From: an uncultured Nitrospiraceae bacterium
Lineage (GTDB): Bacteria > Nitrospirota > Thermodesulfovibrionia > Thermodesulfovibrionales > SM23-35
Assembly: GCA_963727775.1 (NCBI GenBank)
Contig: CAVSHB010000004.1
Location: forward strand, 128,001-192,000
DNA length: 64,000 nucleotides
Direction of reading: 5' to 3'
A program made the translations under genes and the position numbers. The notes under the pieces were generated by a model. That model ran no database searches, had not been told where the DNA came from, and was given only the letters and a program-made list of their open reading frames with translations. Shown one piece after another: positions 14,701 to 64,000 of this stretch; the stretch's first letter is position 1; the number at the start of each line of letters is the position of its first letter.

Positions 14701-16629
14701 ACGAACAAAGACCAGGGAGTGGCCTATATGCCCGACACAGGAAACGCGGGCATACTGTTTTACGGCACAGGCATAAGCAATGATAACTATACAGACGAAA
14801 ACATCTACTGGTTAGCCGTGGGTAACGGAGTTCAGATGGTCAATATAAAAGGCAAAGGACCCCAGCCCGTTGCCGGAAATAACACCTTTACAGAGACTAT
14901 CCATGTGGAGCAGGACAACATCATCGTGCCGGTCATAACCACTGACCCTGAATCAGACTACTGGTTCTGGGACTATATTGTAGCCGGAGACCCTGACGAT
15001 GGCGTCAAGACCTTCACAATCCAGGCAAACGGTGTGGCCAATGCCTCAGGCAGCCTGAGTATAAACCTGCAGGGGTTCACCAATACCAAACACCATGCTT
15101 CATTCAAACTCAACGGCACACAGATAGCCGATACAGCAGATAAAGTATGGTACGGCCCGAACCCCAAAACAATCACCATTAATTACAGTCCCGGCCAGCT
15201 TTATGAAGGCAGCAATACAGTTGAAATCACAGGCTTGCTGGATAATCCGGACACGGATTACAGCATCTTCTATTTAAACTCATTCGACCTGACATACCAG
15301 AGGCTTTACCATGCCACAAACAACAGTCTGGTCTGCCACGACAATACAAACCCGGTGGTGACCATTACCGGGTTCACAGGACCTGACTTATCGCTTTTCG
15401 ATATCACAGACCCTCTGAACCCCAGGAACGTAACAGCCGCGAAGATAACCTCTACAGGCGGCGGTTATGCCCTAAGCTTCAATCCCGCATCGTCTGGTGC
15501 CGTTTATCTGGCCTTAAAGCAGGACGCTGTTATTCCTATTCCGACGGCAAATGTCAGGGCTGGCACAGTTCCCTGGCTCAAAGACAATAAAAACAAGGCA
15601 GACTATATCATCATTACCACGGCCGAGCTCAGTGACGCGGCAAATACACTGGCCGCCTACCGGAGCAACCAGGGGCTTACCGTTCAAACCGTATTGCTTG
15701 AAGAGATCCTCAATGAATTCAATTACGGCATATACAGTCCGGAGGCGATCAGAGACTTTCTCAGCTACGCCTATCATAGCTGGAAAAAAGCGCCCGGTTA
15801 CGTAGTTCTCGCAGGCAACGGCACATTTGACTACAAAAACAACCTTGGCAAGAATGATAACCTGATCCCGACGCTTATGACCTCCACACCATCTGGAGTT
15901 TATCCTTCGGACAACCTCTTTGCAGAGGTGGAAAACGATCATGTCCCGAGGATCGCCATAGGCAGGCTGCCTGTGCTGACAGCCTCGGACCTGACAAATG
16001 TAATCAACAAGATCGCCGTATACGAGGGCGCTACCGGCAATAAGGTCATCATGCTGGCCGATGTGCCCGATGACGCGGGGGCTTTCACGAAGGACAGCAA
16101 TGCTGTGTTAGCTCTATTACCTAAAAGCTACAGCGCAGAGACAATCTACCTGGCCGAACAGCCTGTCGGTACAGCTCACGACACGCTCATGGACTGGATA
16201 AATAATAAGGGGATCGTGTTCTTAAACTACATAGGGCACGGAGGGGTGGACCACCTTGCCATGCAACCCGTTCTCACAGAAGACGATGTTGTTTTCCACA
16301 TGACCAACAGCACGAAACTGCCTGTAATGGCGGCCATGACGTGTGTTGTGGGAGAGTATGGCATACCGGGTTATAACTCACTGAGCGAAGTGCTGGTGCT
16401 GCAAAACGGCGGCGGGGCGGCGGCTGTCTGGTCTCCCACGGGGATGTCATTCGACTCAGAGGCCCTGATACTCGATGAAGAGTTCTTCAAGGCGGGGTTC
16501 AAAGCCAAAAAAGCGGTGCTCGGCGACGTTATCCTTAAGGCGCTTAACGGCTTTAACAAAGCAGGCGGCCAGGACTTCATGATGGATATCTATAACCTCC
16601 TCGGCGACCCTGCTTTGAAACTCAGGTAA
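8755..16629 (+). CDS. Giant secreted surface protein: DUF11/conserved-repeat Ig-like domains plus C-terminal peptidase C25 (gingipain/PorU-like)
   Basis: Signal peptide (AYA|EG); about 7 repeats of DLTVTKT...YTITVxNxG...TVTDTLPTGLT plus 2 divergent ones; C25 motifs GNGTFDYK, SDNLF, IGRLPV, YIGHGG, MTC, LLGDPAL. Confidence 0.88.
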   Translation: MKVTNMKNTDGLPLHCRSARVRLIYMLLLVILFGVFGWTGHAYAEGSRSLYPSNYLTLYPLGSRADLDLEPGAVGALNQYVGKVTRSGFIYVYAQQGEYIVLGSRNRVYQSATNGNIAVYNPTQNFGIPGAENFNAATPGTPDFTCSGGLHTAPPGGTPSSYYDTGGTVYGLIATRAQELAGPNSADNSIQVTNGYRPCAYYAQSTGIYGVLFYPSTNGAANPDGSIATPIVENLGVSAWDVTVRPTSTSITDTNGRVFTYAFIGYTGGNQLPVYTNLYYITQDGYRYSQFLNGLDGNGYALYANSLGFMDNGQPLYKDLRGNEALVTTLPLGVTTQTAQYPTFFSDVSPSGYNATEINRVLTALNIPIAPTAATVSNVQFTGTVSGSTSYLGTGGTFSFDTTNTITYQIVVSLDGINYDPSNANNATLTGLAPSGSNTIIWNGMNNSNVNFPSGGPYYYQVYGRNGEIHFPIIDAENNYYGGPEIIRLNGVGAPSTAVYYDDRGYVLSTGITVGTLNGYLCPTATPAQPVPAYSLTGIDSSTAYRTWGVNTGTSNTNFDCTSTNAWGDAKAVNLWTYYSSTPTLQTLNVISLPVDVATSVNGPDTAIAASTVQGTFTFANNGTAIAHGVTYTMTLSAGLTNVTFGNLPVGTTATYSAATGIVTFAGTALPTTLTAGQAVLGATTTAPMTYSYTAPASGPVTVNTTIATTDTDGYLTNNSASITTYVGAVDVQTTINVLQEAEPYGTVTGNIQFTNNGTSAAAGVTYTATIGNGSYYPTLITFTSIPTGVTPIYDNTTGVITFTGLPSTLGSSETFNIGFSYTAPASGVIPATSAITTTSTDPNSANNISSDKTYVGPDLTVAKTDNGPFTPGGTGQYTITVSNIGNLPSTGTITVTDTLPTGLTYSSGTTGTGWSCGAVGQVVTCTSITAIPANSAGNTITLIVNVLATATSPLVNNVSVSGGGDVNTTNNTASDITVVNALQDLTVTKTDNGPWTQGGTGAYTITVKNVGTAQTNGATITITDTLPTGLTYVSGTGTGWTCSAVGQLVNCTSNATILPNGTSTITLNVNVSATATSPLVNTVTVSGGGETNTSNDTATDSTVVNQPDLTVTKTDNGPWTRSGTGTYTITVKNVGTATTANTITVTDTLPTGVTYASRTGTNWTCNAVGQVVTCTSNTAIGAGGTAQLLLLNVNLTATATGPLVNNVTVSVAGDNNSSNNTGTDSTAVNGADLTVAKTDNGSWTQGQTTAQYTITVNNIGTATTSGTIAVTDTLPTGVTYTSRTGNQWTCTYAAPVVTCTYNRGGTYTIAAGGTAQLLYLTVTVSATATSPLVNNVTVSGGNETNTANDTATDSTVVNQPDLMITKTDNGPWTLGGTGTYTITVKNVGTATTANTITVTDTLPTGVTYASRTGTNWTCNAVGQVVTCTSNTAIGAGGTAQLLYLTVTVSATATSPLVNNVTVSVTGDNNALNNAATDTTIVTQPDLTVTKSHTGNFTQNGTGTYTITVQNIGTANTTAVATVTDNLPTGLTFVSGTGAGWNTCTAAGQVVTCTQVTGQSINAGAASNPITLTVNVLATATSPLVNSVTVSGGGEVNTSNDMATDSTVINQPDLTITKTHNNIIFYLGQPDAYYTITVSNAGTAATTGTITVTDTLPTGLTFVSGIGMGWSCGAAGQVVTCTSSTAIAASIAGNPSAGNPITLTVSISMSAPYALTNSATVSLTGQTESNPNNNNASDSTTIIPTLITLSDFRAHEDKGSMVIEWTTSSEAGTAGFYLFRKDASTGGYQRINRRLLPALLTSLQGGTYSLIDKGASPGQSYTYLLMEVEAGGAKNIHGPFTVSTTGTAINNFGLSNTITPELLLNPPKVSTNTVVRSFASDGSSNISVRNDPYKTTVDSGQDLYSNYVRKAKENTVPKATQAVHIRALAASTGSASIQTGTSIKIPVSTNGLYSLSSSTIATLLGISEQKIIQLIKNNGLQLTNKDQGVAYMPDTGNAGILFYGTGISNDNYTDENIYWLAVGNGVQMVNIKGKGPQPVAGNNTFTETIHVEQDNIIVPVITTDPESDYWFWDYIVAGDPDDGVKTFTIQANGVANASGSLSINLQGFTNTKHHASFKLNGTQIADTADKVWYGPNPKTITINYSPGQLYEGSNTVEITGLLDNPDTDYSIFYLNSFDLTYQRLYHATNNSLVCHDNTNPVVTITGFTGPDLSLFDITDPLNPRNVTAAKITSTGGGYALSFNPASSGAVYLALKQDAVIPIPTANVRAGTVPWLKDNKNKADYIIITTAELSDAANTLAAYRSNQGLTVQTVLLEEILNEFNYGIYSPEAIRDFLSYAYHSWKKAPGYVVLAGNGTFDYKNNLGKNDNLIPTLMTSTPSGVYPSDNLFAEVENDHVPRIAIGRLPVLTASDLTNVINKIAVYEGATGNKVIMLADVPDDAGAFTKDSNAVLALLPKSYSAETIYLAEQPVGTAHDTLMDWINNKGIVFLNYIGHGGVDHLAMQPVLTEDDVVFHMTNSTKLPVMAAMTCVVGEYGIPGYNSLSEVLVLQNGGGAAAVWSPTGMSFDSEALILDEEFFKAGFKAKKAVLGDVILKALNGFNKAGGQDFMMDIYNLLGDPALKLR
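12172..13136 (+). repeat. Identical intragenic DNA blocks between DUF11 repeats
   Basis: 12172-12320 = 12931-13079 (149 bp); 12697-12764 = 13069-13136 (68 bp). Confidence 0.85.
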
Positions 16630-49164: not shown

Positions 49165-50727
49165 ATGGAACCAGCAGAGGGTGTACAAAAGAGCAGTACA
49201 AAGAGGAAGTTTCCGAAGCGAAGCAATCGTTACGGGCCCGATTTCAAGCTTCAAATAGTCAAGAAGTACGTTGAGGAGAGCGTTCCCGTTCCGGTGATCC
49301 GGCAGGAATGCGGAGTGAGCAGTAATTCGGTAAGACGCTGGGTACGTGCCTATCGTCGTGAGGGCGAAGCCGGACTATCGATGAGGTACACCGGTAAGGG
49401 ACGCAGCCTTCCCACTCCAGTGAAAGAGAAGATCGTCGAAATCAAAGAAGGCAACCCGCTTTTCGGTATCAAGCGCATTTCGCAACTATTAAAGAGAGTG
49501 TTTTTCCTTTCCGCCAGCCCTGAGACGGTCCGTAAGACACTGCATGAATCATCCCTCATGACGGCCCCACCCAAGAAGCGGCAGCGTAATATTACCCGTC
49601 CCCGGTTTTTCGAGCGATCAACACCGAACCAGCTTTGGCAGACGGATATCTTTACGTTTCGACTTGGGGGCCGCTATGCGTTTCTGATCGGCTATATAGA
49701 CGATTATTCCCGCTACATAACGGGGCTTGAGCTTTTCCGCAGCCAAACGGCGCAGAATGTTATAGAGGTATACCGTCGGGCGGCCTCCGAGTACAACCCG
49801 CCCAAAGAGATGCTTACGGATAATGGGCGGCAGTATACGAGCTGGCGCGGCAACAGCCGCTTCGAACTGGAGTTAAAGAAAGACAAAATCCACCACATCA
49901 AATCGCAGCCTCACCACCCGATGACATTAGGGAAGATAGAGCGATTCTGGAAGACGATTTTTCTGGAGTTCCTAAGCCGAGCCCAGTTCGGTAGCTTTGA
50001 AGATGCGGTTGAGCGGATACGTCAGTGGGTGAAGTATTACAACCATAAAAGGCCGCATCAGGGTATCGGCGGCTTGTGTCCCGCAGACCGGTATTTTGAG
50101 ATCCAGAGCGAGCTTAGAAAGACCATCGAGCAGGGCATCCAGGACAACCTCCTTGAGATGGCGCTAAGGGGCAAGCCGCGCCTGCCGTTTTACATGGTGG
50201 GCCGGATGGAGGGGCAGTCGGTGGTGCTGCGTGCGGAAAAGGGCAGGCTGAGGTTGTCGGTTGACGCCGAAAACGACGACATTACGCAGGAAGTAGTTTA
50301 CAATCTAAATGAGAAAGGACATGACAATGGAGAAGACGGAGAAGATAAAGAGCGAGAAGAAGCGGCAGCCGATGAACTACGGGGCAATGGAAAAGTGCAA
50401 GGCGGTACTGTCTGTATGGACGGAGAGGCGCAGACCGGCGGAGATATGCCGGGAGCTGTCGATCCCCTGGATGGCGCTTGCGCACTGGCAGAGGCGGGCG
50501 ATGGAGGGGATGCTCCAGGCGCTGGAGCCGAGGGTGAGCCTGGACAGGGGGCCAGCGCTTTCTCCCCGCTTGCAGGCGTTGCTGGAGAAGAAGCGTCTGA
50601 CGCTCTTGACGAGCACAGTGCAGGGCAGACTGGAAAGGACGCTATCAAAGGCACAGGAAGCAAGGAAAGCGGAGACGCCTCAGTCGAAGGAGATAAAACC
50701 CTCCGGCGAAGCCTTGCGGAAAACTGA
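49165..50727 (+). CDS. IS481-like DDE transposase (HTH + rve) with long acidic tail
   Basis: AAGGAG RBS; WQTDI, LTDNG, GKIERF (DDE); YNHKRPHQGI. Confidence 0.88.
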   Translation: MEPAEGVQKSSTKRKFPKRSNRYGPDFKLQIVKKYVEESVPVPVIRQECGVSSNSVRRWVRAYRREGEAGLSMRYTGKGRSLPTPVKEKIVEIKEGNPLFGIKRISQLLKRVFFLSASPETVRKTLHESSLMTAPPKKRQRNITRPRFFERSTPNQLWQTDIFTFRLGGRYAFLIGYIDDYSRYITGLELFRSQTAQNVIEVYRRAASEYNPPKEMLTDNGRQYTSWRGNSRFELELKKDKIHHIKSQPHHPMTLGKIERFWKTIFLEFLSRAQFGSFEDAVERIRQWVKYYNHKRPHQGIGGLCPADRYFEIQSELRKTIEQGIQDNLLEMALRGKPRLPFYMVGRMEGQSVVLRAEKGRLRLSVDAENDDITQEVVYNLNEKGHDNGEDGEDKEREEAAADELRGNGKVQGGTVCMDGEAQTGGDMPGAVDPLDGACALAEAGDGGDAPGAGAEGEPGQGASAFSPLAGVAGEEASDALDEHSAGQTGKDAIKGTGSKESGDASVEGDKTLRRSLAEN

Positions 50728-50737
50728 GAAACCGTAG
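50321..50737 (+). CDS. HTH protein encoded in an alternative frame of the transposase tail
   Basis: GAAAGGA RBS; KCKAVLSVWTERRRPAEICRELSIPWMALAHWQRRA; similar to the next ORF (W-x-x-RA-x-x-x-M-x-x-A-x-E). Confidence 0.7.
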   Translation: MTMEKTEKIKSEKKRQPMNYGAMEKCKAVLSVWTERRRPAEICRELSIPWMALAHWQRRAMEGMLQALEPRVSLDRGPALSPRLQALLEKKRLTLLTSTVQGRLERTLSKAQEARKAETPQSKEIKPSGEALRKTEKP

Positions 50738-50881
50738 CGTAGAGACATCCTAATAATGGGGCAAGGCAGAAAACGGGTGATGGTTAAATATGGACCGAGT
50801 TGAGAAAATCGATTGTAGGGCTTCTGAGGAAGGCGATTTTCTCTCAATCCGAAGATTTTTAGTTGTTAAAGGGAGTGTGCT

Positions 50882-51268
50882 ATGAGCGACTCAAAGGATA
50901 AGGAGCGTGCCCGCCAAAGAGCAGCGGTGGTGTTTGCCGTGCGCAGCGGCCAGATAACAGCCGAGGAGGGTGCGCGCCGACTGGGCGTGTCCCGCAAGAC
51001 CTACTACGAATGGGAAAGCCGGGCATTACAGGCGATGACAGAAGCCATGGAAAACAAATCTGCCGGCAGACCGAACATGCCGCAGGACGAGGAGAAGCAG
51101 CGTTTACAGGAGGAGGTTACCGAACTCCGGAAGAAGTTGTTTGTCGCTGAAAAGACGGTAGAAGTGCGGGATATGTTGCATGCGTATGAGTTGCAGAATG
51201 CCGGTGATAAGAAAAGCGTCCCGACAAATCGGGAGGAAAAAAAACGAAAGCAAAGGAAGAAACGATAA
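50882..51268 (+). CDS. HTH protein (OrfA-like)
   Basis: AAGGGAG RBS; ITAEEGARRLGVSRKTYYEW followed by a coiled coil. Confidence 0.8.
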   Translation: MSDSKDKERARQRAAVVFAVRSGQITAEEGARRLGVSRKTYYEWESRALQAMTEAMENKSAGRPNMPQDEEKQRLQEEVTELRKKLFVAEKTVEVRDMLHAYELQNAGDKKSVPTNREEKKRKQRKKR

Positions 51269-51273
51269 CTCGT

Positions 51274-52317
51274 ATGCTTGCCATGATTGACCAGATCAGG
51301 GAGAGGACCGGGATGCCCTACAGAGCGATCTGCTATGCCGTAAGACTGCCCTACCCGAGTTTTATGCGGTGGCGCATACGGCGCAAAAAAGATACGCCCT
51401 TGGTGCGGCAACCTGGTCCTCCCAAGGTCAAGCCACCGGATTTTGGCAAGATTGAGCAGGATATAGCACAGTTATCTCACGGGCACAATCGCACGCAGGG
51501 AACCGGGGCGTTATATGTTCGCTACGGATCCACCGTATCAAGGCGGAAGCTGCATACAATGGTAGCAATGGCGCGGCACGATCTCAATACCTACCATCGT
51601 CAGAATCTGCGGCGCATCCGCTGGAACGTGCCGAACGTCGCCTGGTCCATGGACCCCTGCGAATACGAACAGCGTGACGCAACTGGTGCAAAGGTATACC
51701 TGAACCAGATGCAAGATCTCGCGTCACGCTATAAGTTTAATCCCATGACGGGAGAAGTTCCCTGCGGCGAAGAGATATCCGGCTATCTTGCGGCAACCTT
51801 CAATCGGTTTGGAGCACCCCTGTTCCTAAAACGGGACAATGGAGGTAACCTCAATCATGCAGCTGTCAATGACGTGCTTGCCGATTATTTTGTCCTACCG
51901 GTGAATAGCCCGGTCCATTATCCGCCTTATAACGGTGCGATCGAAGAGGCGCAAACCGAGCTGAAAAATGGGCTTGCCGCTAAGCTCTCGTACAGGCCCT
52001 TTTGCCCACGAGAACACATAGAGGCATACGCCTCGACGGTTGAGCATGATCTTAATCACCAACCTCGTCCGTGCTTGAACGGTAACAACGCCTGCAGGGT
52101 GTACTTCATCGGAAAAAGAGCTTTTTCCAAATGGGAAAGGAGGGATGCCTATGTTTGGATAACGACCTTGCAGAGTGATATACTTTGCAGTGAAGGGGTT
52201 CAGCCCCAGGCGGCTTGGCGCATCGCCGTGGAGGCATGGCTGAACATGAAAGGCTTTATTACGATTACGATTAATGGAAAAGTGTTACCCAATTTTTTCT
52301 CATTTCGGTATCATTAA
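51274..52317 (+). CDS. Second DDE integrase-core transposase
   Basis: WSMD, QDLASRY, KRDNGG, PPYNGAIEE; stop codon inside the right inverted repeat. Confidence 0.8.
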   Translation: MLAMIDQIRERTGMPYRAICYAVRLPYPSFMRWRIRRKKDTPLVRQPGPPKVKPPDFGKIEQDIAQLSHGHNRTQGTGALYVRYGSTVSRRKLHTMVAMARHDLNTYHRQNLRRIRWNVPNVAWSMDPCEYEQRDATGAKVYLNQMQDLASRYKFNPMTGEVPCGEEISGYLAATFNRFGAPLFLKRDNGGNLNHAAVNDVLADYFVLPVNSPVHYPPYNGAIEEAQTELKNGLAAKLSYRPFCPREHIEAYASTVEHDLNHQPRPCLNGNNACRVYFIGKRAFSKWERRDAYVWITTLQSDILCSEGVQPQAAWRIAVEAWLNMKGFITITINGKVLPNFFSFRYH

Positions 52318-55718: not shown

Positions 55719-55747
55719 TTGACAAAATTATAAAATATGCTTATATT
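55719..55747 (+). promoter_or_regulatory. Sigma70 promoter with overlapping palindrome (candidate ArsR operator)
   Basis: TTGACA-17-TATATT; AATAT-GCTT-ATATT (55734-55747) overlaps the -10. Confidence 0.6.
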
Positions 55748-55782
55748 CGAAAGTAAGAATGTATTTCAATAGGAGGAATGAC

Positions 55783-56124
55783 ATGCTTTCTATGGGTCAA
55801 AGAATAGAACTCTTGAAAATTATTGCTCATCCCGTGAGAATCCGTATCCTTGAAGAACTTTCAAAGGGTGTCAAATGCGTGAGCGATTTCGAGGAGTTCC
55901 TTGACATAAGACAACCTAATGTATCGCAGCATCTTTCGCTTCTGAGACATTACGGCATAGTGGATTACTATATGGACGGAAGGCTTAGGTGCTATTTTCT
56001 TATTAACCCGATCATACCTGATCTTCTCGAACTGCTCAGAAAGGATTACCGCGAATCACTTCCGCGTCCTGCGTGTTGTCCAATAACCAAGAAGGGCGTG
56101 TATCCGGGGAACAGGGCAAGATAA
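55783..56124 (+). CDS. ArsR/SmtB-family repressor with Cys-Cys tail
   Basis: AGGAGG RBS; AHPVRIRIL, KCVSD, QPNVSQHL; C-terminal ACCP. Confidence 0.9.
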   Translation: MLSMGQRIELLKIIAHPVRIRILEELSKGVKCVSDFEEFLDIRQPNVSQHLSLLRHYGIVDYYMDGRLRCYFLINPIIPDLLELLRKDYRESLPRPACCPITKKGVYPGNRAR

Positions 56125-56174
56125 TAATATCAGCAAGATAGTTTCAAGATTTAAAGGATACAAGGAGGCAAAAG

Positions 56175-56501
56175 ATGAAAATTGGGATTCTTATTTCAAC
56201 AGGTGACGCAGAGACGGTCTGGAATGCCTTCCGTTTTGCGAACCTCTGTCTGAACACAGACGTGACCAACGAAGTGTCGATTTTTATGCATGCAAAGGCA
56301 GTCGAATACGAAAGCTGCAACTCTGAGAAGTTCAACATCAAAGAGCTTGCAAAAATGTTTGTCCTGAGTGACGGAAAATTGCTCGCATGCGGCAAATGTT
56401 TGGGCTTCAGGGGATTAGAAGATAATGATATCTGCCGTAAGGGCAGTCAGAAAGATCTGTACGAAATGGTCACCACGAGCGACAAGCTTGTCTGCTTCTG
56501 A
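56175..56501 (+). CDS. DsrE/DsrF-like sulfur-relay protein
   Basis: MKIGILI...WNAFRFAN, LLACGKCLGFRG, SDKLVCF. Confidence 0.85.
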   Translation: MKIGILISTGDAETVWNAFRFANLCLNTDVTNEVSIFMHAKAVEYESCNSEKFNIKELAKMFVLSDGKLLACGKCLGFRGLEDNDICRKGSQKDLYEMVTTSDKLVCF

Positions 56502-56545
56502 GATGTCATTGGAATGTCAGCTCTGAGAAAGGGAGGTGAATTATT

Positions 56546-56797
56546 TTGGTAAAAATAACAATCTATTCCAATCGACCCGCCGGAAAGCGGTGAACCAATC
56601 TCTGTGCTTTGGCCGGGAAAGTCAAAGAAAAATATCCCAAAGATGTAGAAGTGGAAACGGTCTATTCCGGTTTCCTTGGTCTTGGTCATAAAGGAGATGC
56701 CGTCAAGCCCCCTAACATAGCCGTTGACGACACAATACTTGGAGGCGAAGCCACTTTTGAAGACATTGAAAAAGCTGTTATGGGAAAACTGTCTTAG
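56546..56797 (+). CDS. Small thioredoxin-like selenoprotein (83 aa, Sec16, UxxxC)
   Basis: GGAGGT RBS, TTG start; MVKITIYSNRPAGKR-TGA(56591)-TNLCALAG continues in frame into ORF 56609-56797; cis-Pro-like PPNIAVDD; SECIS-like hairpin 56607-56627. Confidence 0.75.
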
Positions 56798-56822
56798 AGA
56801 AGACGATGGAGGTGCGGATGTT

Positions 56823-58559
56823 ATGAAAAGAATAATATATGCGGGAGTCCTGTTTTTAGTCTTTGTGAGTTGTGTCTCTCTGGCGCAGGCAGAAATCCAA
56901 AATGCAGACCGCGTTCGGGGCCAGATTGTCGCTGAGGCAAAAAAGGGAGGATATCAGCTCATCACACCTGAGGAACTCAAAAAGGAATATCTAAAAGATT
57001 CATCCGCGTTTCTTCTTGTAGATACAAGGCAGGAGTGGTCGTATCAGATGCAGCATATCAAGGGGTCCTTACATATTGACTTTGCTCCGACCTGGTGGAA
57101 TCAATACTCACCTATGATGCGGTCGGAGATGAAAGCCCTTCTCGGTACTGAAAAAAATAAGAAAATTGTCTTTTATTGAGACGGTTTAACGTGAGTGCGA
57201 AGTCACGGTGCGGCCAGTTTGGCTGTAAAACTTGGATATAAGAATATATACCGTTTCGCTGAGGGCCTTCCGACATGGAAAGAGATGGGATTGCCTCTTG
57301 AGGCGGGTCGCGCATCTTATGGAGCGTCCGGAGGACAGAAAGGTATTTCGACTGTTATTGGCACGGGCTTGATCCTGACACTTCTCGGAGTATTTATAGG
57401 GGGAATAGCCCTTAATCTTACTCCCTGTGTTTATCCTCTGATCCCAATTACAGCTTCCTATTTTGGCGGTAGGAGTGAAACAGGTGAACGTCAGGGATAT
57501 CTTCTTCTCCACGGCCTTCTCTATATTCTCGGGCTATCTGTCATGAATTCTGCCATTGGAGTTTCAGCAGCATTCACTGGCAGGCTCATGGGCTCATTTC
57601 TTCAGCATCCTGCTGTGCTTATTTTTGTCTCATCTGTATTGCTCCTAATGGCGCTTAACTTCTTTGGCTTATGGGAACTCCGGCTGCCAAGCTTCCTGAG
57701 TTCCGTTGTATCAAAATCCCACACCGGTTATGTCCAGTCACTCTTCATGGGACTGACACTCGGTATAATTGCTGCTCCCTGTATCGGTCCGTTTATTATA
57801 GGGCTTCTGACCATGGTTGCCCAGAGGGGTGATCCCTGGTACGGTTTTCTCATATTCTTTACTCTGAGCATCGGCCTCGGATTACCGCTATTTATTCTAT
57901 CGATATTTGCCGGAAATGTAAGCAAGCTCCCCCGATCAGGTGAATGGTTGATATGGATCAGGAATCTTTTCGGATGGATCATGCTTGCCATGGCTGTATA
58001 TTTTGTAAAACCATTGTTACCGTGGCATGATGCCGGAACTTACATGCTGGCATTAATTGCTTTGGCTTCAGGAGTTCATCTGGGCTTCGTTAGTAAGACA
58101 GGTAAAAATTTGAGAACTTTCACTATTATCAAAAGAAGCATAGGTATTCTTGTGATAGGATTATCTATCTTTCTTGCAGGCTCCGTCCTCTTACGGGGAC
58201 CAGGGGTATCCTGGCGGCCATATTCTCAAGACACGTTCTCAAAAGCGATGGCTTCAAATAAACCGATAATCATTGACTTCTATGCGGATTGGTGTACACC
58301 GTGCGGTCAGTTGGACAAAAAAACATTTCATGACAAGGAAGTTGTTAAGGAATCCGCTAAATTCAGCATGATCAAAGTTGATCTGACGAAGGAAGCTAAT
58401 CCCGATGTTCTGCAACTGTTGAAAAAATATGATGTCAAGGGTGTGCCGACGGTTATATTCCTTGATCCTCGCGGTCAGGAAATAAAGGAATTGGAGATTG
58501 TGGACTACATCCCCGGTAATGAATTTTTGCCGAGAATGAAAAAGGCATTAGGAGAATAA
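56823..58559 (+). CDS. Double-selenocysteine rhodanese-DsbD(beta)-thioredoxin fusion (578 aa)
   Basis: GGAGGT RBS and signal peptide; ORFs 56724-57179 and 57195-58559 share a frame, joined by FY-TGA(57177)-DGLT-TGA(57192)-VRS at the rhodanese CxGxxCxRS loop; then LTPCVYP, AAPCIGP and WCTPC. Confidence 0.85.
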
Positions 58560-58566
58560 CCGAGTA

Positions 58567-59277
58567 ATGAAACTAAAAAAAATAGTCGTCTTGATCGTTA
58601 TTTCCGCCTTAATCGTGGCAGTTAAGGTATTTCACCTCGACCAGTTCCTCACTCTTTCATATCTGAAGGGATCATTGGATAAGCTGAAAGCCCTCTATGA
58701 AAACCACAGGGTGCTGGTCATTGCAGGCTATTTTGTCATTTACGTTCTTACAACCTCTATTTCCTTGCCCGGAGCTTCTCCGTTAGGTATCGCTGGAGGA
58801 GCGCTGTTCGGTTTCTGGACAGCGACAATCGTGGTCTCTTTCGCAAGCTCTATCGGCGCCACACTGGCATGTTTAGTTTCCCGCTATCTACTAAGGGACT
58901 GGATACAAAGTAAATTCGGTGACAAGATTGCAAAGATCAACGAAGGTATCGAAAAAGAAGGCGCGTTCTATTTATTCACCCTGCGGTTGATTCCGGTATT
59001 CCCTTTCTGGATGATCAACCTCACTATGGGTCTGACAAAAATGTCCCTTATTAAATTCTATTGGGTATCACAGATAGGAATGCTTCCCGGAACTATGGTT
59101 TTTGTTAACGCCGGAAAGGAACTTGCAAAGATTGATTCTCTCAAGGGAATTTCCTCTCCAGGCCTGATCATTTCATTTGCACTCATCGGCATATTTCCCA
59201 TAGCGGTAAAGAAACTGGTGGCTTTATACCGTTCCAGGATGAAGAAGACCGCTGGCGATGCCGGAAATATTTCCTGA
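58567..59277 (+). CDS. TVP38/TMEM64 (VTT/DedA superfamily) membrane protein
   Basis: SLPGA, GGALFG, LRLIPVFPF, GMLPGT. Confidence 0.9.
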   Translation: MKLKKIVVLIVISALIVAVKVFHLDQFLTLSYLKGSLDKLKALYENHRVLVIAGYFVIYVLTTSISLPGASPLGIAGGALFGFWTATIVVSFASSIGATLACLVSRYLLRDWIQSKFGDKIAKINEGIEKEGAFYLFTLRLIPVFPFWMINLTMGLTKMSLIKFYWVSQIGMLPGTMVFVNAGKELAKIDSLKGISSPGLIISFALIGIFPIAVKKLVALYRSRMKKTAGDAGNIS

Positions 59278-59285
59278 GGGCATCC

Positions 59286-59603
59286 ATGGGAAGGTATGAA
59301 GAAATAACAGACGCGCTACAAATCCTCGGATTATATGAATCCGCAACAGTAAAGGAAATCAAGAACAAGTATCGGGAATTGCTCAAAGAATGGCACCCTG
59401 ACTTATGTAAGGAAAATGAACATATTAGAAAAGAAAGAACTATTGAGATCATCAATGCGCACAGAACAATAATGGATTATTGTGAGCAATATAGATTTTC
59501 GTTCTCCAGGGAAGAAGTTGAAAAATATGTATCTCCTGAAGAACTTTGGGCAAAACAATTTGGAAAAGACCCAATATGGGGAAACTATCAAGATGATGGA
59601 TAA
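59286..59603 (+). CDS. Small J-domain protein
   Basis: ILGL...EIKNKYR...WHPD. Confidence 0.85.
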   Translation: MGRYEEITDALQILGLYESATVKEIKNKYRELLKEWHPDLCKENEHIRKERTIEIINAHRTIMDYCEQYRFSFSREEVEKYVSPEELWAKQFGKDPIWGNYQDDG

Positions 59604-60237
59604 GATAACTATATTTGATAAATATGCCGAAGAATATGATAGATGGTTTGATACGAATTCATTGGTGTATCAATCAGAAGTGCGGGCAGTGAGAATGCTG
59701 CTGCCTCAAAATGGCCAGGGGGTTGAAATAGGAGCTGGTACAGGAAGGTTTTCAGTTCCATTGGGAATAACACTCGGCGTTGAACCTTCAAGAGCAATGG
59801 CCGAAATTGCAAGAAGCAGAGGAATGACGGTATATGATTCAAAAGCAGAGAATCTACCATTTGATGATAATACATTTGATTTTGTATTAATGGTCACAAC
59901 AATCTGCTTTCTTGAAGATCCGTTGCAAGCAATAAAGGAAATCAGAAGGATTCTTTGTCCTTCGGGAAAGCTCATCATCGGTATGCTTGACAAAGATAGT
60001 CCTCCTGGAAAGGAGTCTCTCTCTAAAAAGAAGAACAGCAAGTTTTATCAGTATGCCAATTTTTATTCGGTCAACCGTGTCTTGAACTGGCTTAAGATAT
60101 CAGGATACAATCATATTCATGTTCTCCAAACAATCTTTAAGAAACCGGAAGAAATAATTGTCTTAGAGCCGATAAGAGAGGGATATGGAGAGGGATTGTT
60201 TGTTGTAATTTCTGCTCAAAAAGGAAAGACAATTTGA
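59593..60237 (+). CDS. Class I SAM-dependent methyltransferase
   Basis: FDKYAEEYDRWF, EIGAGTG, AENLPF...FD, TICF. Confidence 0.88.
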   Translation: MMDKITIFDKYAEEYDRWFDTNSLVYQSEVRAVRMLLPQNGQGVEIGAGTGRFSVPLGITLGVEPSRAMAEIARSRGMTVYDSKAENLPFDDNTFDFVLMVTTICFLEDPLQAIKEIRRILCPSGKLIIGMLDKDSPPGKESLSKKKNSKFYQYANFYSVNRVLNWLKISGYNHIHVLQTIFKKPEEIIVLEPIREGYGEGLFVVISAQKGKTI

Positions 60238-60331
60238 AAAGGTTAGTTCAGTTGGTAAGGTACCGTCATCGCTTAATCGTCAGATGGCCTACCCGTCATC
60301 GAAGAAATCAATTAATATCTCGAAGAACTTT

Positions 60332-61381
60332 CTACAAAATCCTGATACAGGGAGTTGGATTTGATATCGCGTTCCCAATTATTGAGGCAGTTTCCATCCC
60401 TGCAGTTTTCAATTCATTAACTAATTGGTCCGCCTGGGATTCAGGAACCGACAGGAGAAGACCCCCCGATGTCTGTGGATCAAAGAGTAATTCCGCCTCT
60501 TTCTCTGACAACTTTGTAATTATTTCCAGACGTCCTTCTGATAATTTCCTGTTTGCCTTATTGCTGCCGGTGGTTTCACCTTTACGATACATCTCAAGAG
60601 AATGAGGATAAAACGGCAGTTCATTATAGAAAAGATCTATTTGTACTCCACTTCCCGTTGCCATCTCCAATGAATGTCCAACAATGCCGAACCCCGTTAT
60701 ATCGGTACATGCATGGATGTCGAAACTCAGTGCTGTATCAAGAGCCTTTTTATTAAGGGCTGCTACGCGAGGCAGGATAACTTCCAGTTCTTTGAAGGAT
60801 AGTTTCCCCGATCTACACGCATTAAACAATACACCGGTGCCCAAAGGTTTTGTGAGGACCAAGACATCCCCTTCCTGAACTGCGCAGTTTGTCAGTATTT
60901 TATCGGGATGAACGACTCCCGTAACCGCAAGGCCGTACTTGGGCTCATTGTCATCTACAGAATGTCCGCCGGCCATAGAAGCACCGGCTTCGTTGACTTT
61001 GTCATTCCCGCCACGGAGTATTTCTTTCAAAACACTCTTGTCAAGTTTCTTGGGGGGAAACATGACGAGGTTCAAGGCAGTGAGAGGTTTGCCCCCCATG
61101 GCATAGATGTCCGAGAGAGAATTCGCTGCAGCGATTTGTCCAAACCAATACGGATCATCCACCGGCGGTGTAATAAAATCGACGGTACTGATAAAGGCCA
61201 TCTCGTCTGATAGGCGGTACACTGCCGCATCGTCACAAGTATTGAACCCGACAAGCAGGTTCGGATCGTTAGAAGCGCTTAGTGCCTTGAGTGCTTCCGC
61301 CAGATCTGACGGACCTATTTTAGCTGCTCAGCCGCATGTCCGGGAGAGTCCTGTAAGAGTTCTTTTCTTGAAGAGACGCAT
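60332..61381 (-). CDS. selD: Selenide, water dikinase, selenocysteine-containing (349 aa, Sec18)
   Basis: ATG 61381; CG-TGA(61330-61328)-AAK; DDAAVY, DFITP, NSLSDIYAMGG, GGHS, TDITGFG, DPQTSGGLL; SECIS-like hairpin 61296-61313. Confidence 0.93.
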
Positions 61382-61650: not shown

Positions 61651-63705
61651 TTATGCCGAAACTGCCTTTTCCGTCTCTTTTAGCCACAAAATCCTTGACC
61701 CGTTGATTACTGAGGCATTGACGGATTCAATCAATTCGTTGGGAGATATGTGAAACTTCTCTTTTTCAACAAACGGGCTGAATGACAATTTTGTCTTTGC
61801 CTTTGCCGCCTTATTGATTTCAGATTCCGTAGGTCTTTTTATAACAGCTCCCATGGCCTTTGCCAATGCGATGAAAATATCCCTGTGGCTCTTTGATTCT
61901 CCCTGAGGTTCAATAACTTTCGGAAGATATTTCAGCCTTCCGGCATAATCTATTATCGTGCCGGCGGACTCAAGGAAGGTTGCCGAAGGCAGGACAACAT
62001 CCGCCTGTTTTGCGAGCTCTGTAAGATGTGAATTCTGCACTATCAGAAATTCAACTCCAGCCGGTCTTTTCTTTAACGGAACCTCACCAACGGCATACAG
62101 AAGCTTTACAGCGCCCGGTACGCTTTGCCCTTTACTCAAGGCAGAGCCGGTCATCTCCAGATAAGTTTTCCCTTCCGTTGTCAGCCCCATTAAGGAAACA
62201 CCCCTCGCATTGCTTTCAAGCCCGACGGATATTACTTTCCCCTTAATTAATGCTATATTGGCTGACGCGTCAAACAATGAAGGAGAAGTGAAAAAGAGCG
62301 CTTCTTTGGCGCCGGCAATGATGGTAGCTGCCTTTTCGCTTTCTTCAGCGATCTCGACGTCTTTTACGGCAGCGGCAATTTTACTTTCAGCCTTAAGCCC
62401 TTTTGATATCAAAGCCTTGGCAATTTGTTTAAGAATCGATATCTCATCACCTTTAAGATTTAAAGCTGCAACATCCGCAATCTTTGTATCAGCAATGTTT
62501 ATGACAATAAGCTTGGCCCCCCTGTTCACCCTTCTTCTTATAGCGGCGTCGAGGGCTGGCAAGACCCTCTCCCACTGTGACGGATTCAGATCAACAAGGA
62601 CAAACAGGTCGGCCTTATCGATCTCCGCTTTCTGAGAGTTCTTTAATGAATGCGCGTCTGAATAGAGGCTCGCGGTCGTATCATAATTTTCCGTTTTTAC
62701 AATATCCCTTGCAAGCTTTTTCAGAGCCAATGCATCCTCATTCTCTATTCCCGCGACACTTATAAAACCTGCGTTCTTGCCGGCCTGCTTAAGCCTATCG
62801 GCAATTATGCCGAGCGCGTCTTCCCAGGTCGTTTCTTTGAGTCCGCCGTCTGTTCTTTTCATCGGAGACGTAAGACGCGCCTCCGCCTCAATGCAGTCAA
62901 AACCGAATCTGCCGTAAGCGCAAAGATACTTCTCAGCCGAGCCCGCATCCGCCCCCGAATTGATCTTTTGTATCCTGCCATCTTTTGTGCTCACGGTAAT
63001 GTCACAGCCGTTTCCGCACAAAAGACAGACCGATTTTGTTTTCTCGTACTCCCATTCACGGCCCTTGCGGTACCTGTCCGACTCAAGCAATGCGTTTACA
63101 GGACATGCATCGACGCAGCTCCCGCAGAACGTACATCCGGATTCCTGGAGAGGTTTGTCGTTTGCAGTCAGGACCTTTGATTCAATCCCCCTTCCCATGA
63201 ATTCAAGTACATTCGTGCCCTGTTCCTTGCAGACCCTCACACACCGTCCGCACAGGATGCAGTATTCAGGATCCCTCTTTATAAAAGGGTTCGCCTCATC
63301 GGTCGGGTAACCAAACTGCTTCCTTGTAAAGGTTGATTCCTTAAGCCCGAAATCGTACGCGTATTGCTGGAGGTTGCACATTCCGGCCTTTGTGCATGTC
63401 ATACAGTCAAGCGGGTGCATGGACAGGATAAGGTCTATGACGAACTTTCTGACTTCCTGCAACTTCTCAGTCTTCGTGTTGACGTTCATGCCGTCTTTAA
63501 CTTTCGTATTGCATGCTATTACAGGTGCCTTCAGTCCCTGGATTTCAACAAGGCAAAGTCTGCATGCCCCAACGCCTTTCATGCCTTTGAGATAACAGAG
63601 GTTAGGGATATGAACACCGGCAAGCTCTGCGGCGTCTATAAGATTCGTACCGGCCGGGACCTCAATCTCTTTTCCGTCTATTTTAAGTTCAACCAATTCC
63701 TCCAT
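61651..63705 (-). CDS. NuoG/FdhA-like iron-sulfur oxidoreductase subunit
   Basis: [2Fe-2S] CY...ACRLC...C; HPLDCMTC...C; CILCGRCVRVC; CTFCGSCVDACP; CLLCGNGC; degenerate molybdopterin domain. Confidence 0.85.
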   Translation of the reverse strand: MEELVELKIDGKEIEVPAGTNLIDAAELAGVHIPNLCYLKGMKGVGACRLCLVEIQGLKAPVIACNTKVKDGMNVNTKTEKLQEVRKFVIDLILSMHPLDCMTCTKAGMCNLQQYAYDFGLKESTFTRKQFGYPTDEANPFIKRDPEYCILCGRCVRVCKEQGTNVLEFMGRGIESKVLTANDKPLQESGCTFCGSCVDACPVNALLESDRYRKGREWEYEKTKSVCLLCGNGCDITVSTKDGRIQKINSGADAGSAEKYLCAYGRFGFDCIEAEARLTSPMKRTDGGLKETTWEDALGIIADRLKQAGKNAGFISVAGIENEDALALKKLARDIVKTENYDTTASLYSDAHSLKNSQKAEIDKADLFVLVDLNPSQWERVLPALDAAIRRRVNRGAKLIVINIADTKIADVAALNLKGDEISILKQIAKALISKGLKAESKIAAAVKDVEIAEESEKAATIIAGAKEALFFTSPSLFDASANIALIKGKVISVGLESNARGVSLMGLTTEGKTYLEMTGSALSKGQSVPGAVKLLYAVGEVPLKKRPAGVEFLIVQNSHLTELAKQADVVLPSATFLESAGTIIDYAGRLKYLPKVIEPQGESKSHRDIFIALAKAMGAVIKRPTESEINKAAKAKTKLSFSPFVEKEKFHISPNELIESVNASVINGSRILWLKETEKAVSA

Positions 63706-63730
63706 CCAAAGCCTCCTATATATTCTGAAG

Positions 63731-64000
63731 TTATTCTTTGCCTACCAATTCTTCTTTATGTTTCCTTATGACCTCTATCGCCCCTTCAGGACAGACCTTA
63801 AGGCACTCCCCGCATTTTGTACATCTCCTTTGCCTGATCTCGAAGGGCAAATACCCGGAAAGATAGAGTTGTTTCTTTTCACCTATTATTGCGCCGTATT
63901 TACATACCTCCGAACATTTGCCGCACATTGAGCAGAGTCCGGGGTTGATTGTATATTCTACAAGACTGATACATTCCTTTTTAGAGCATATGCCGGACAA
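63731..64000 (-). CDS. C-terminal 2x[4Fe-4S] end of a NuoF/HydB-like subunit (partial, starts beyond the window)
   Basis: CSMCGKCSEVC and CTKCGECLKVCP; directly upstream of the NuoG-like gene. Confidence 0.7.
   Translation of the reverse strand: MSGICSKKECISLVEYTINPGLCSMCGKCSEVCKYGAIIGEKKQLYLSGYLPFEIRQRRCTKCGECLKVCPEGAIEVIRKHKEELVGKE

Follow-up and report, generated by a model that had tools for sequence, protein, structure and literature searches.

Seven genes on the plus strand of a 64,000-nucleotide stretch of contig from an uncultured Nitrospiraceae bacterium (the window) form a genuine operon that encodes two predicted selenocysteine (Sec) proteins. The operon itself is a rediscovery of Tso, the "three selenoprotein operon" catalogued by Haft & Tolstoy 2025 (as cited in PMC13188914, with the members TsoR NF045707, TsoA NF045695, TsoB NF045694, and TsoC NF045708, plus TsoX/TsoY). 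As judged by comparison with NCBIfam models and that citing paper, it is a lineage-specific Nitrospirota variant of Tso. The original prediction presented the system as a candidate undescribed one, and named a match to an already characterised operon as a refutation of novelty. The core of the system proved to be TsoB, which scored 838.6 bits against NF045694 (cut-off, 805), and novelty is thereby refuted. A literature search, which did not extend to the primary 2025 paper, found no functional work on the Tso families. We put at about even the chance that TsoB passes electrons from a cytoplasmic TsoC-like selenoredoxin across the membrane to its own periplasmic rhodanese, which would probably reduce sulfane sulfur or selenium present in excess. 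The features of the locus are as follows.

55719..55747, plus strand: sigma-70-type promoter TTGACA-17-TATATT (11/12 matches; top site of the scan)
55743..55762, palindrome: predicted ArsR operator ATATTC-N8-GAATGT, overlapping the −10 box (14.6 bits)
55783..56124, plus strand: arsR, ArsR/SmtB repressor, from a four-Cys subfamily found across the class (NF033788, 69.1 bits; cut-off, 55)
56175..56501, plus strand: dsrE, DsrE/DsrF-like protein with C72-x-x-C75, predicted sulfur carrier (PF02635, 43.1 bits)
56546..56797, plus strand: divergent TsoC-like Sec redoxin, 83 aa, TTG start, motif NRPAGKR-U16-TNL-C20
56591..56593, plus strand: redoxin UGA, predicted Sec16 (Cys in the same column in 6/39 aligned homologues)
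56607..56627, plus strand: candidate redoxin SECIS hairpin, kept in 11 sequences without compensatory change
56823..58559, plus strand: tsoB, rhodanese-DsbD-Trx protein, 578 aa
57177..57179 and 57192..57194, plus strand: TsoB UGAs, predicted Sec119 and Sec124, five codons apart
57210..57226, plus strand: SECIS-like hairpin after the second TsoB UGA, with compensatory changes
58567..59277, plus strand: DedA/TVP38 membrane protein, VTT domain (PF09335, 90.1 bits)
59286..59603, plus strand: small J-domain protein, accessory (PF00226)
59593..60237, plus strand: class I SAM methyltransferase, accessory (PF08241)
60332..61381, minus strand: selD, Sec-containing, a separate convergent gene (TIGR00476, 376.8 bits)
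61328..61330, minus strand: in-frame UGA of selD

The genes were all found where the original prediction had placed them, with selD convergent. The seven genes follow one upstream promoter with intergenic gaps of 50, 44, 25, 7, 8, and −11 nt, and the ends of the operon and selD are separated by 94 nt. Promoter-like sites overall numbered 12 versus 11.9, a total at the chance level of the scan, and of 56 arsR homologues, 44 had a TTGAC/TTGAA-anchored site with the same spacing in their upstream region. The symmetric operator motif ATATnnnAATATTnnnATAT was built from 56 arsR upstream regions. The window site ranked 10 among the sites listed in a genome scan with this motif, which is AT-rich and therefore unspecific in such a scan, so that further targets are not nameable.

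Reading of the UGA codons as Sec beyond chance is indicated indirectly by TGA retention, Cys-containing homologues, a covarying TsoB hairpin, and the insertion machinery of the host. Both TsoB TGAs were retained in 15/15 family loci, which had been collected by protein search with no TGA pattern, and both positions were occupied by Cys in all nine stand-alone rhodanese homologues. The TsoB hairpin, 16 nt past the second UGA, was 100% paired in 37 sequences. Its pair 36–48 occurred as GC (24), AU (9), CG (2), and GU (2), compensatory changes that fall at third codon positions. The covariation score of the two TsoB helices taken jointly was reached by 0 of 500 shuffles, which is not a p-value because the sequences share ancestry. 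A weaker helix farther upstream might act for the first TsoB UGA. The check on the Sec machinery proposed at the outset had a positive result, selA, selB, and tRNA-Sec all being present in the host genome. Four Sec-type UGAs within 5 kb had been predicted; all four exist at the predicted positions, but only three lie inside the operon.

TsoB matched NF045694 over model positions 2–571 of 572, its full length, and fell below the cut-off of the DsbD model NF001419 (235.7 bits; cut-off, 330). Pfam searches revealed an N-terminal rhodanese domain (PF00581), DsbD-beta, and Trx. A signal peptide is predicted at residues ∼1–23 and eight helices within DsbD-beta, from which hydropathy analysis (positive-inside count, 12 versus 2) predicts that both soluble domains lie outside. 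The rhodanese motif, U119-DGLT-U124, contains both Sec codons, and UxxxxU is tabulated as the TsoB motif in PMC13188914. Redox cysteines are contained in LTPC202VYP and AAPC320IGP of DsbD-beta and in WC491TPC494 of Trx. These three motifs were kept in 71, 70, and 71 of 71 dereplicated TsoB homologues, most of which had been collected by a pattern demanding both TGAs, making the set uninformative on Sec conservation.

The redoxin has no signal peptide, and its motif is not CxxU, as originally read, but GxxU, in which Sec takes the second Trx-motif position and an extra Cys follows at +4. Its score against TsoC NF045708 was 26.1 bits (cut-off, 45) and involved the N-terminal 37 positions only; identity to canonical TsoC was 23–26% (alignment A1). 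The NEPxGxxU region reads N-R-P-A-G-K-R-U, in which N, P, G, and U are invariant in 39 aligned sequences and E is replaced by R. The UxxxC redoxins form their own clade (support, 99/97), present in 9 of 57 family genomes with tsoB adjoining in each and in none of the 41 family genomes without tsoB. A TsoC-type gene accompanied tsoB in 15 of 16 family genomes (nine UxxxC and six canonical NEPxGxxU), the contig of the sixteenth stopping short of the relevant slot. A DedA/TVP38 gene was as tightly linked, lying 3′ of tsoB at 16/16 family loci. The AlphaFold model of the redoxin (pLDDT, 89.5) has a thioredoxin fold; Foldseek retrieved only thioredoxins, at E ∼0.01 with a probability of ∼1, and no match of any kind at E 0.001, and the top solved match of the redoxin profile was the MTH895 thioredoxin-like protein. 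Model, motifs, and hydropathy thus sustain the anatomy first proposed, namely a thioredoxin-fold Sec-redoxin, a DsbD-beta domain with both cysteines, and a periplasmic Trx and double-Sec rhodanese.

The window DsrE matched no NCBIfam family and no solved structure at E 0.01, and genes of its type were found at 10/16 family tsoB loci. The J-domain gene was present at 7/16 of these loci and also at the Desulfobacterota locus L028; its GC content is 36%, compared with 45% for the genome. The methyltransferase, whose nearest solved structure is 1vlm (E 1e-65), was full length at 5/16 and was rejected as ArsM (NF008823, 15.9 bits; cut-off, 263). A methylation helper had been part of the original prediction, but at these frequencies both genes are accessory.

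The cysteines of the window ArsR are C32 (alpha3), C70 (wing), and C98-C99 (tail), with no others. They were conserved 15/15, and among 40 homologues the alpha3 and wing cysteines were found in all and the tail CCP in 39. The protein fell below the cut-offs for TsoR (NF045707, 31.9 bits; cut-off, 115), against which the genuine TsoR of L028, a Desulfobacterota tso locus, scored 157.8 bits, and for BigR (48.1 bits; cut-off, 155). This four-Cys subfamily was detected in 202 of 301 genomes of the host's class and is near-core there. Forty loci headed by it were hand-picked from the 202 genomes and are mutually related, which weakens the support they lend; 39 contained at least one sulfur or selenium relay gene. 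The genes included DsrE/F-like (24), DsrH (23), SQR-like (18), TauE (12), DsrE2 (9), SelD (7), window-type DsrE (6), YedF (2), and TsoB (2), with YedE and rhodanese genes likewise among those headed, and in several genomes the ArsR gene lay immediately 5′ of selD, TauE, and YedF. In read-through DsrE copies at these loci, the site was UxxC in 19/20. No ArsM, ArsS, or Acr3 was found at the 40 loci, and a scan of 31 additional neighbours detected no family for resistance to arsenic or mercury. Given that relay genes follow in 39/40 loci, sulfane sulfur or selenium is favored as the signal.

The sensing site itself counts against a sulfur signal. All known persulfide-sensing ArsRs carry an alpha2/alpha5 Cys pair, and the sites of As(III) sensors lie in alpha3 or consist of a C-terminal CC (both from PMC11672702). 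The pair is absent from the window ArsR, only 1/40 homologues having the alpha2 Cys, and its alpha3 and tail cysteines are closer in kind to sites for As(III) or soft metals. They do not reproduce the AfArsR-type CCx5C of alpha5, the window CC having no third Cys after it and lying in a proline-rich stretch ∼10 residues beyond the predicted helix.

On the model of DsbD biology, electrons would flow from the redoxin (U16) to DsbD-beta (C202/C320), to Trx (C491/C494), and on to the rhodanese (U119/U124), which would occupy the place of the DsbD alpha domain. Less securely, U119 might attack polysulfide, persulfide, or a selenium equivalent, and U124 might resolve the adduct to a diselenide that the relay would then re-reduce. 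DsrE would act as a cytoplasmic sulfur carrier or buffer, and the four-Cys ArsR would let go of its operator once reactive sulfur or selenium modified or bridged its cysteines. The TsoB score, the conserved redox motifs, the predicted topology, and the TsoC-type linkage support such a relay, in agreement with the logic of the original prediction. The sulfur substrate is additionally favored by ArsR-rhodanese fusions at 7/35 tsoB loci and by the host genome (96.8% complete), in which dsrA was present and acr3 was not found. Conversely, the redoxin is without an N-terminal attacking Cys, so that its chemistry differs from that of a standard thioredoxin, which counts against this explanation. The host also encodes an ordinary TrxA, which could feed DsbD-beta instead and thus counts against the redoxin as donor. 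The notion that TsoB replaces an SQR/DsrEFH module was discarded: SQR-like proteins occurred in 2/57 family genomes whether or not tsoB was present, 39 genomes having neither, which leaves TsoB/SQR exclusivity unsupported. Searches of the host genome for DsrF, DsrH, SQR-like, ArsR-locus-type TauE, and DsrE2 homologues were negative.

The same relay might instead serve an arsenic or organometalloid target, with ArsR sensing As(III) or methylarsenite via the tail CC and alpha3 Cys and TsoB reducing or stripping periplasmic arsenicals with ArsS/ArsM-type enzymes, a rival that we rate as unlikely but substantial. ArsS(-ArsM), ArsM, TIGR04282, or Acr3 was found by seeded searches near 7/35 tsoB loci (not dereplicated; chosen out of 161 for having no less than 1.5 kb of sequence on the upstream side and 3 kb on the downstream side) versus 1/55 control DsbD loci, which keeps arsenic in contention and counts against the sulfur explanation; the contrast is inflated, since the seeds were drawn from tsoB loci and the controls from other phyla. 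Arsenic-linked genes also lay near 5/16 family tsoB loci, TIGR00412 ('MTH895/ArsE family') was matched by 12 of 39 TsoC-superfamily members, and, beyond the likeness of the Cys sites, ArsEFG reportedly offers an ars-operon precedent for pairing a small redoxin with a DsbD-beta-like protein. However, the window-type ArsR precedes sulfur-relay rather than ars genes at the 40 sampled loci, its tail CC differs from CCx5C, and the window methyltransferase is not ArsM. The ArsM- and ArsS-like genes of the host sit on a different contig, and ArsS is often itself a selenoprotein, the genes for which tend to cluster. Among the substrates first listed, polysulfide and sulfane sulfur or selenium are therefore backed by the usual regulon of the ArsR and arsenic to some extent by neighbours; nothing was found for mercury or tellurium.

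It is also improbable that the system provides general envelope thiol repair or oxidant defence in the manner of ScsB/DsbD, whereby the diselenide rhodanese would reduce peroxides or periplasmic proteins that have become oxidised or persulfidated. DedA and the J-domain protein would then help against envelope stress, and no small molecule would serve as a dedicated substrate. DsbD and ScsB feed PprX, DsbC, and PilB (PMC5403849), U-x4-U resembles a dithiol redox site more than a single-Cys sulfurtransferase, DedA invariably follows tsoB in the family, and OsmC and C-GCAxxG-C-C proteins lie near single loci. Nevertheless, this would explain neither the sulfur-relay bias of the ArsR regulon nor why ArsR is fused to rhodanese at other tsoB loci. 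Least probable by far is a selenium-acquisition module, in which the periplasmic rhodanese would take up or reduce selenium species and DsrE/DedA would hand selenium to the neighbouring SelD, for although selD lies near tsoB at 7/16 family loci (in both orientations) and the same ArsR can directly precede selD, TauE, and YedF, the window selD is encoded on the other strand and has an upstream region of its own, another selD copy lies elsewhere in the genome with yedF and a C-x4-C rhodanese, and three Sec residues would be a costly outlay for gaining selenium.

Returning to sulfane sulfur and selenium, a fuller proposal is tentative and probably wrong in some part: that Tso is a trans-envelope sulfane-sulfur/selenium reductase, placed here behind an undescribed class-wide ArsR (four-Cys sensing site; Sec-DsrEFH/SQR/TauE/SelD regulon) and with an uncatalogued U-x3-C selenoredoxin as donor. 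The regulon of the four-Cys ArsR suggests that the signal is reactive sulfur or selenium, and this near-core regulator, which lacks the Cys pair of known persulfide sensors, is followed by sulfur-relay genes. If the proposal is true, Tso gains a first substrate handle, and the four-Cys ArsR adds a new kind of persulfide sensor. That two redoxin clades are interchangeable beside tsoB and that TsoA is dispensable suggests that TsoB and a TsoC-type protein constitute the minimal machine.

Compared with the known Tso, the window operon has a TsoB above cut-off with U-x4-U, an ArsR-family gene at its head, and a TsoC-superfamily redoxin adjoining tsoB, and DedA and J-domain genes occur at some Desulfobacterota tso loci too. 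It differs in having two selenoproteins rather than three, and TsoA was not found. This LULAxC protein was detected in neither the host genome nor any of five family relatives by a model that detected it in 3/5 Desulfobacterota genomes as positive control, TsoA counts at tsoB loci resting on the L028 seed; the TsoX/TsoY models matched neither the host genome nor any positive control. The window regulator also comes from another ArsR subfamily, and a Cys-type DsrE is added. The redoxin, placed upstream of tsoB, belongs to a clade of its own and carries an additional Cys. As in the SqrR/BigR/HlyU regulons, an ArsR repressor stands ahead of SQR-like, DsrE, TauE, YedE, and rhodanese genes at loci of the four-Cys subfamily, but with four other conserved cysteines in place of the alpha2/alpha5 pair. 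ArsEFG of Shewanella reportedly combines, in an operon with ArsR, a small redoxin of the MTH895 type and a membrane protein resembling DsbD-beta; it is not known to contain Sec or a rhodanese, both of which the window has. With DsbD/ScsB/CcdA, finally, TsoB shares the DsbD-beta core with its two PC motifs and likewise ends in a Trx domain, whereas its N terminus is a rhodanese with U-x4-U and that of DsbD is an immunoglobulin-like alpha domain.

The original prediction had placed seven co-oriented genes, encoding ArsR, DsrE, a small selenocysteine (Sec) redoxin, a rhodanese-DsbD-Trx protein, DedA/TVP38, a J-domain protein and a methyltransferase, against a convergent selD, and each was found where it had been placed. 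Intergenic gaps across the seven genes are 50, 44, 25, 7, 8, and -11 nt, and ribosome-binding sites of the AGGAG/GGAGG type are clear before the first five. When TGA was read as Sec, two frames became one, encoding a rhodanese-DsbD-Trx protein of 578 aa with U119 and U124; the redoxin frame lengthened to 83 aa with U16, and the SelD frame was complete. The Sec machinery that was to be checked (selA, selB, and tRNA-Sec) is all present in the window's own genome (3.43 Mb, 96.8% complete). Both TGA codons of the large gene were retained in 15/15 family loci collected by protein search, and the aligned positions are Cys in all nine stand-alone rhodaneses; the redoxin TGA column is Cys in 6 of 39 homologues. 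In 37 sequences a hairpin at 57210-57226 pairs fully, and third codon positions show compensatory changes; the redoxin hairpin is kept in 11 close sequences, among which no covariation was found. The observation as a whole was confirmed.

The view that the system is undescribed fails for its core. When searched against NCBIfam, the large protein scored 838.6 bits with TsoB (NF045694; cut-off 805), making it a member of a known family, and the redoxin and ArsR gave weak matches to TsoC (NF045708; 26.1 bits; cut-off 45) and TsoR (NF045707; 31.9 bits; cut-off 115), respectively. The Tso operon and its proteins TsoA, B, C, X, and Y are catalogued in a 2026 review (PMC13188914), which cites Haft & Tolstoy 2025 (mSystems 10:e0141724). 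The nearest named TsoB relatives are from Nitrospirota metagenome-assembled genomes (75-82% identity), DsrE hits labelled Thermodesulfovibrio stand at 62-64% identity, and dsrA is present in the window's own genome; the host is therefore likely to be a sulfate-reducing member of Thermodesulfovibrionia. The abstract of the Haft and Tolstoy study reportedly places tso loci in Thermodesulfobacteriota.

From hydropathy, TsoB is predicted to have a signal peptide followed by eight helices; Lys/Arg residues number 12 in the loops predicted to be inside and 2 in those outside, so that both soluble domains are predicted to lie on the periplasmic side. Of 71 homologues (<92% identity), 71 and 70 have the first and second cysteine motifs of DsbD-beta, respectively, and 71 have WCxxC. 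PMC5403849 describes how DsbD and ScsB take electrons from thioredoxin in the cytoplasm to targets in the periplasm. In TsoB, by contrast with DsbD, the place of the alpha-domain is taken by a rhodanese with U-x4-U, and for this reason the simplest electron route would run from donor to beta, to Trx, and then to the rhodanese. The relay originally proposed is reasonable.

The U-x3-C redoxin was found in 9/57 family genomes, every one of which was tsoB-positive, and because of this strict linkage it is the likely, predicted donor to TsoB; possible alternatives in the same genome are TrxA and a TrxB-like gene product that scored under its cut-off. The protein has no predicted signal peptide, and its model adopts a thioredoxin fold (pLDDT 89.5), with thioredoxins as Foldseek matches and MTH895 as the best solved sequence match (E 0.002). 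Sec occupies the second motif position, and C20 lies one helical turn further. The redoxin forms a separate clade (support 99/97) on a long branch, its exact superfamily placement being unsure, and no NCBIfam model besides TsoC matched it. UxxxC is absent from the table of PMC13188914, and the order of dsrE and the redoxin gene is exchanged between genomes. A wide TsoC-like superfamily with N-D-P-x-G-x-R-U, Cys forms included, was seen in stretches L108-L136; 50/251 Nitrospirota genomes match it, 12 over cut-off. Some copies are in tandem, and some lie directly 3' of a four-Cys ArsR gene or 5' of TauE.

The regulator is the most useful clue to the substrate. This ArsR has four conserved cysteines and a conserved palindrome across the -10 box, and the four-Cys form was found in 202/301 class genomes (E 1e-30 or better). 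Approximately 6 kb downstream was inspected at 40 of the 202, picked for long contigs and spread over families. DsrE/F-like genes were present in 24 loci (of 20 copies read through, 19 have UxxC), DsrH in 23, a flavoprotein resembling SQR type III but scoring below its NCBIfam cut-off in 18, an MMPL transporter in 15, TauE in 12, DsrE2 in 9, SelD in 7, window-type DsrE in 6, and YedF and TsoB in 2 each; at least one sulfur/selenium relay gene occurred in 39/40. Stretches L326-L362 from class relatives carry a recurrent operon, seen in many Thermodesulfovibrionia-type genomes, in the order arsR, Sec-DsrE (UxxC), DsrF, DsrH, SQR type III-like, second ArsR, DsrE2, MMPL transporter, LolA-like; a search found no paper on it. 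A literature search with a scope outside Haft & Tolstoy 2025 and its supplements likewise found none on the four-Cys ArsR subfamily, its regulon, or the U-x3-C redoxin.

Since this ArsR, in the loci sampled, heads relay genes rather than arsenic genes, sulfane sulfur or selenium is favored, and its reduction as the function of this Tso variant is given an even chance. Against it, the window ArsR lacks the alpha2/alpha5 pair found in all known persulfide-sensing ArsRs according to PMC11672702. Arsenic or an organometalloid as the target is rather unlikely. ArsS, ArsM, TIGR04282, or Acr3 did occur near 7/35 tsoB loci versus 1/55 other DsbD loci, a contrast in which the seeds were drawn from those same tsoB loci and the controls come from other phyla, and arsenic-linked genes lie near 5/16 family tsoB loci. 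However, ArsM, ArsS, and Acr3 seeds matched nothing in the 40 ArsR loci, TIGR04282 matched once, in a tsoB locus, and 31 further neighbors scanned included no arsenic or mercury resistance families. General envelope thiol repair is unlikely, and selenium acquisition very unlikely. That TsoB replaces SQR-like genes is unsupported, such genes being rare in the family (2/57) regardless of tsoB.

Further features were seen in the window and elsewhere in its own genome (G000, contig C1; L-numbers denote single stretches):

Window 8755-16626: an ORF of 2624 aa whose start resembles a signal peptide; the product is probably a large surface protein
Window 49165-52317: a transposase/integrase-like ORF cluster; downstream of it come genes for an FG-GAP repeat protein and a radical SAM protein, and scpA
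Window 61651-64000, minus strand: two genes upstream of selD, one for a ferredoxin and one for an Fe-S subunit resembling NuoG/formate dehydrogenase
G000:C1:811131-813200 (L291:5051-7223): two Msr-like genes, a DedA sharing 68% identity with that of the window, then a flavoprotein resembling mercuric reductase, its frame interrupted by a TAG stop, all named by sequence appearance
G000:C1:1534000-1553999 (L289): a second selD accompanied by yedF, by what is probably a cysteine desulfurase gene, and by a gene for an exported rhodanese with C-x4-C that shares 43% identity with the TsoB domain
G000:C1:1561763-1566859 (L290:7768-12860), minus strand: a second SelB-like gene (TIGR00475, 350 bits, above cut-off) lying between two tRNAs that resemble tRNA-Sec but have a GCA (Cys) anticodon; one of these tRNAs sits immediately 5' of the gene

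The last arrangement matches the selC* tRNA-Cys/selB* arrangement of PMC5389517, which reports selC* in Nitrospirae and selB* only in Syntrophobacterales and Desulfobacterales.

Within the family, tsoB is patchy (16/57 genomes; 14/26 genera). DedA lies 3' of tsoB in all 16 loci, and 15 of them carry a TsoC-type gene (nine of the NRPAGKRU-TNL-C clade and six canonical), the other contig being cut. Four-Cys ArsR occurs in 14/16, window-type DsrE in 10, selD and the J-domain gene in 7 each, and a full methyltransferase in 5. In the locus of one relative (L103; G006:C5), selD and dedA both look frameshifted and the methyltransferase is reduced to its first 43 residues, changes that appear to be assembly error or decay. 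No TsoA was found in the window's own genome or in five family relatives (positive control, 3/5). Across tsoB loci with enough flank (n = 35), TsoC was found in 25, TsoA and TsoR in 14 each, and ArsR-rhodanese in 7. Desulfobacterota-type Tso loci, by comparison, mostly have the order tsoR-tsoA-tsoB-tsoC or carry an ArsR-rhodanese fusion. With its TsoR and TsoC scores under cut-off and no TsoA found, the present operon is one that lies outside canonical Tso and is predicted to work in a Tso-like manner.
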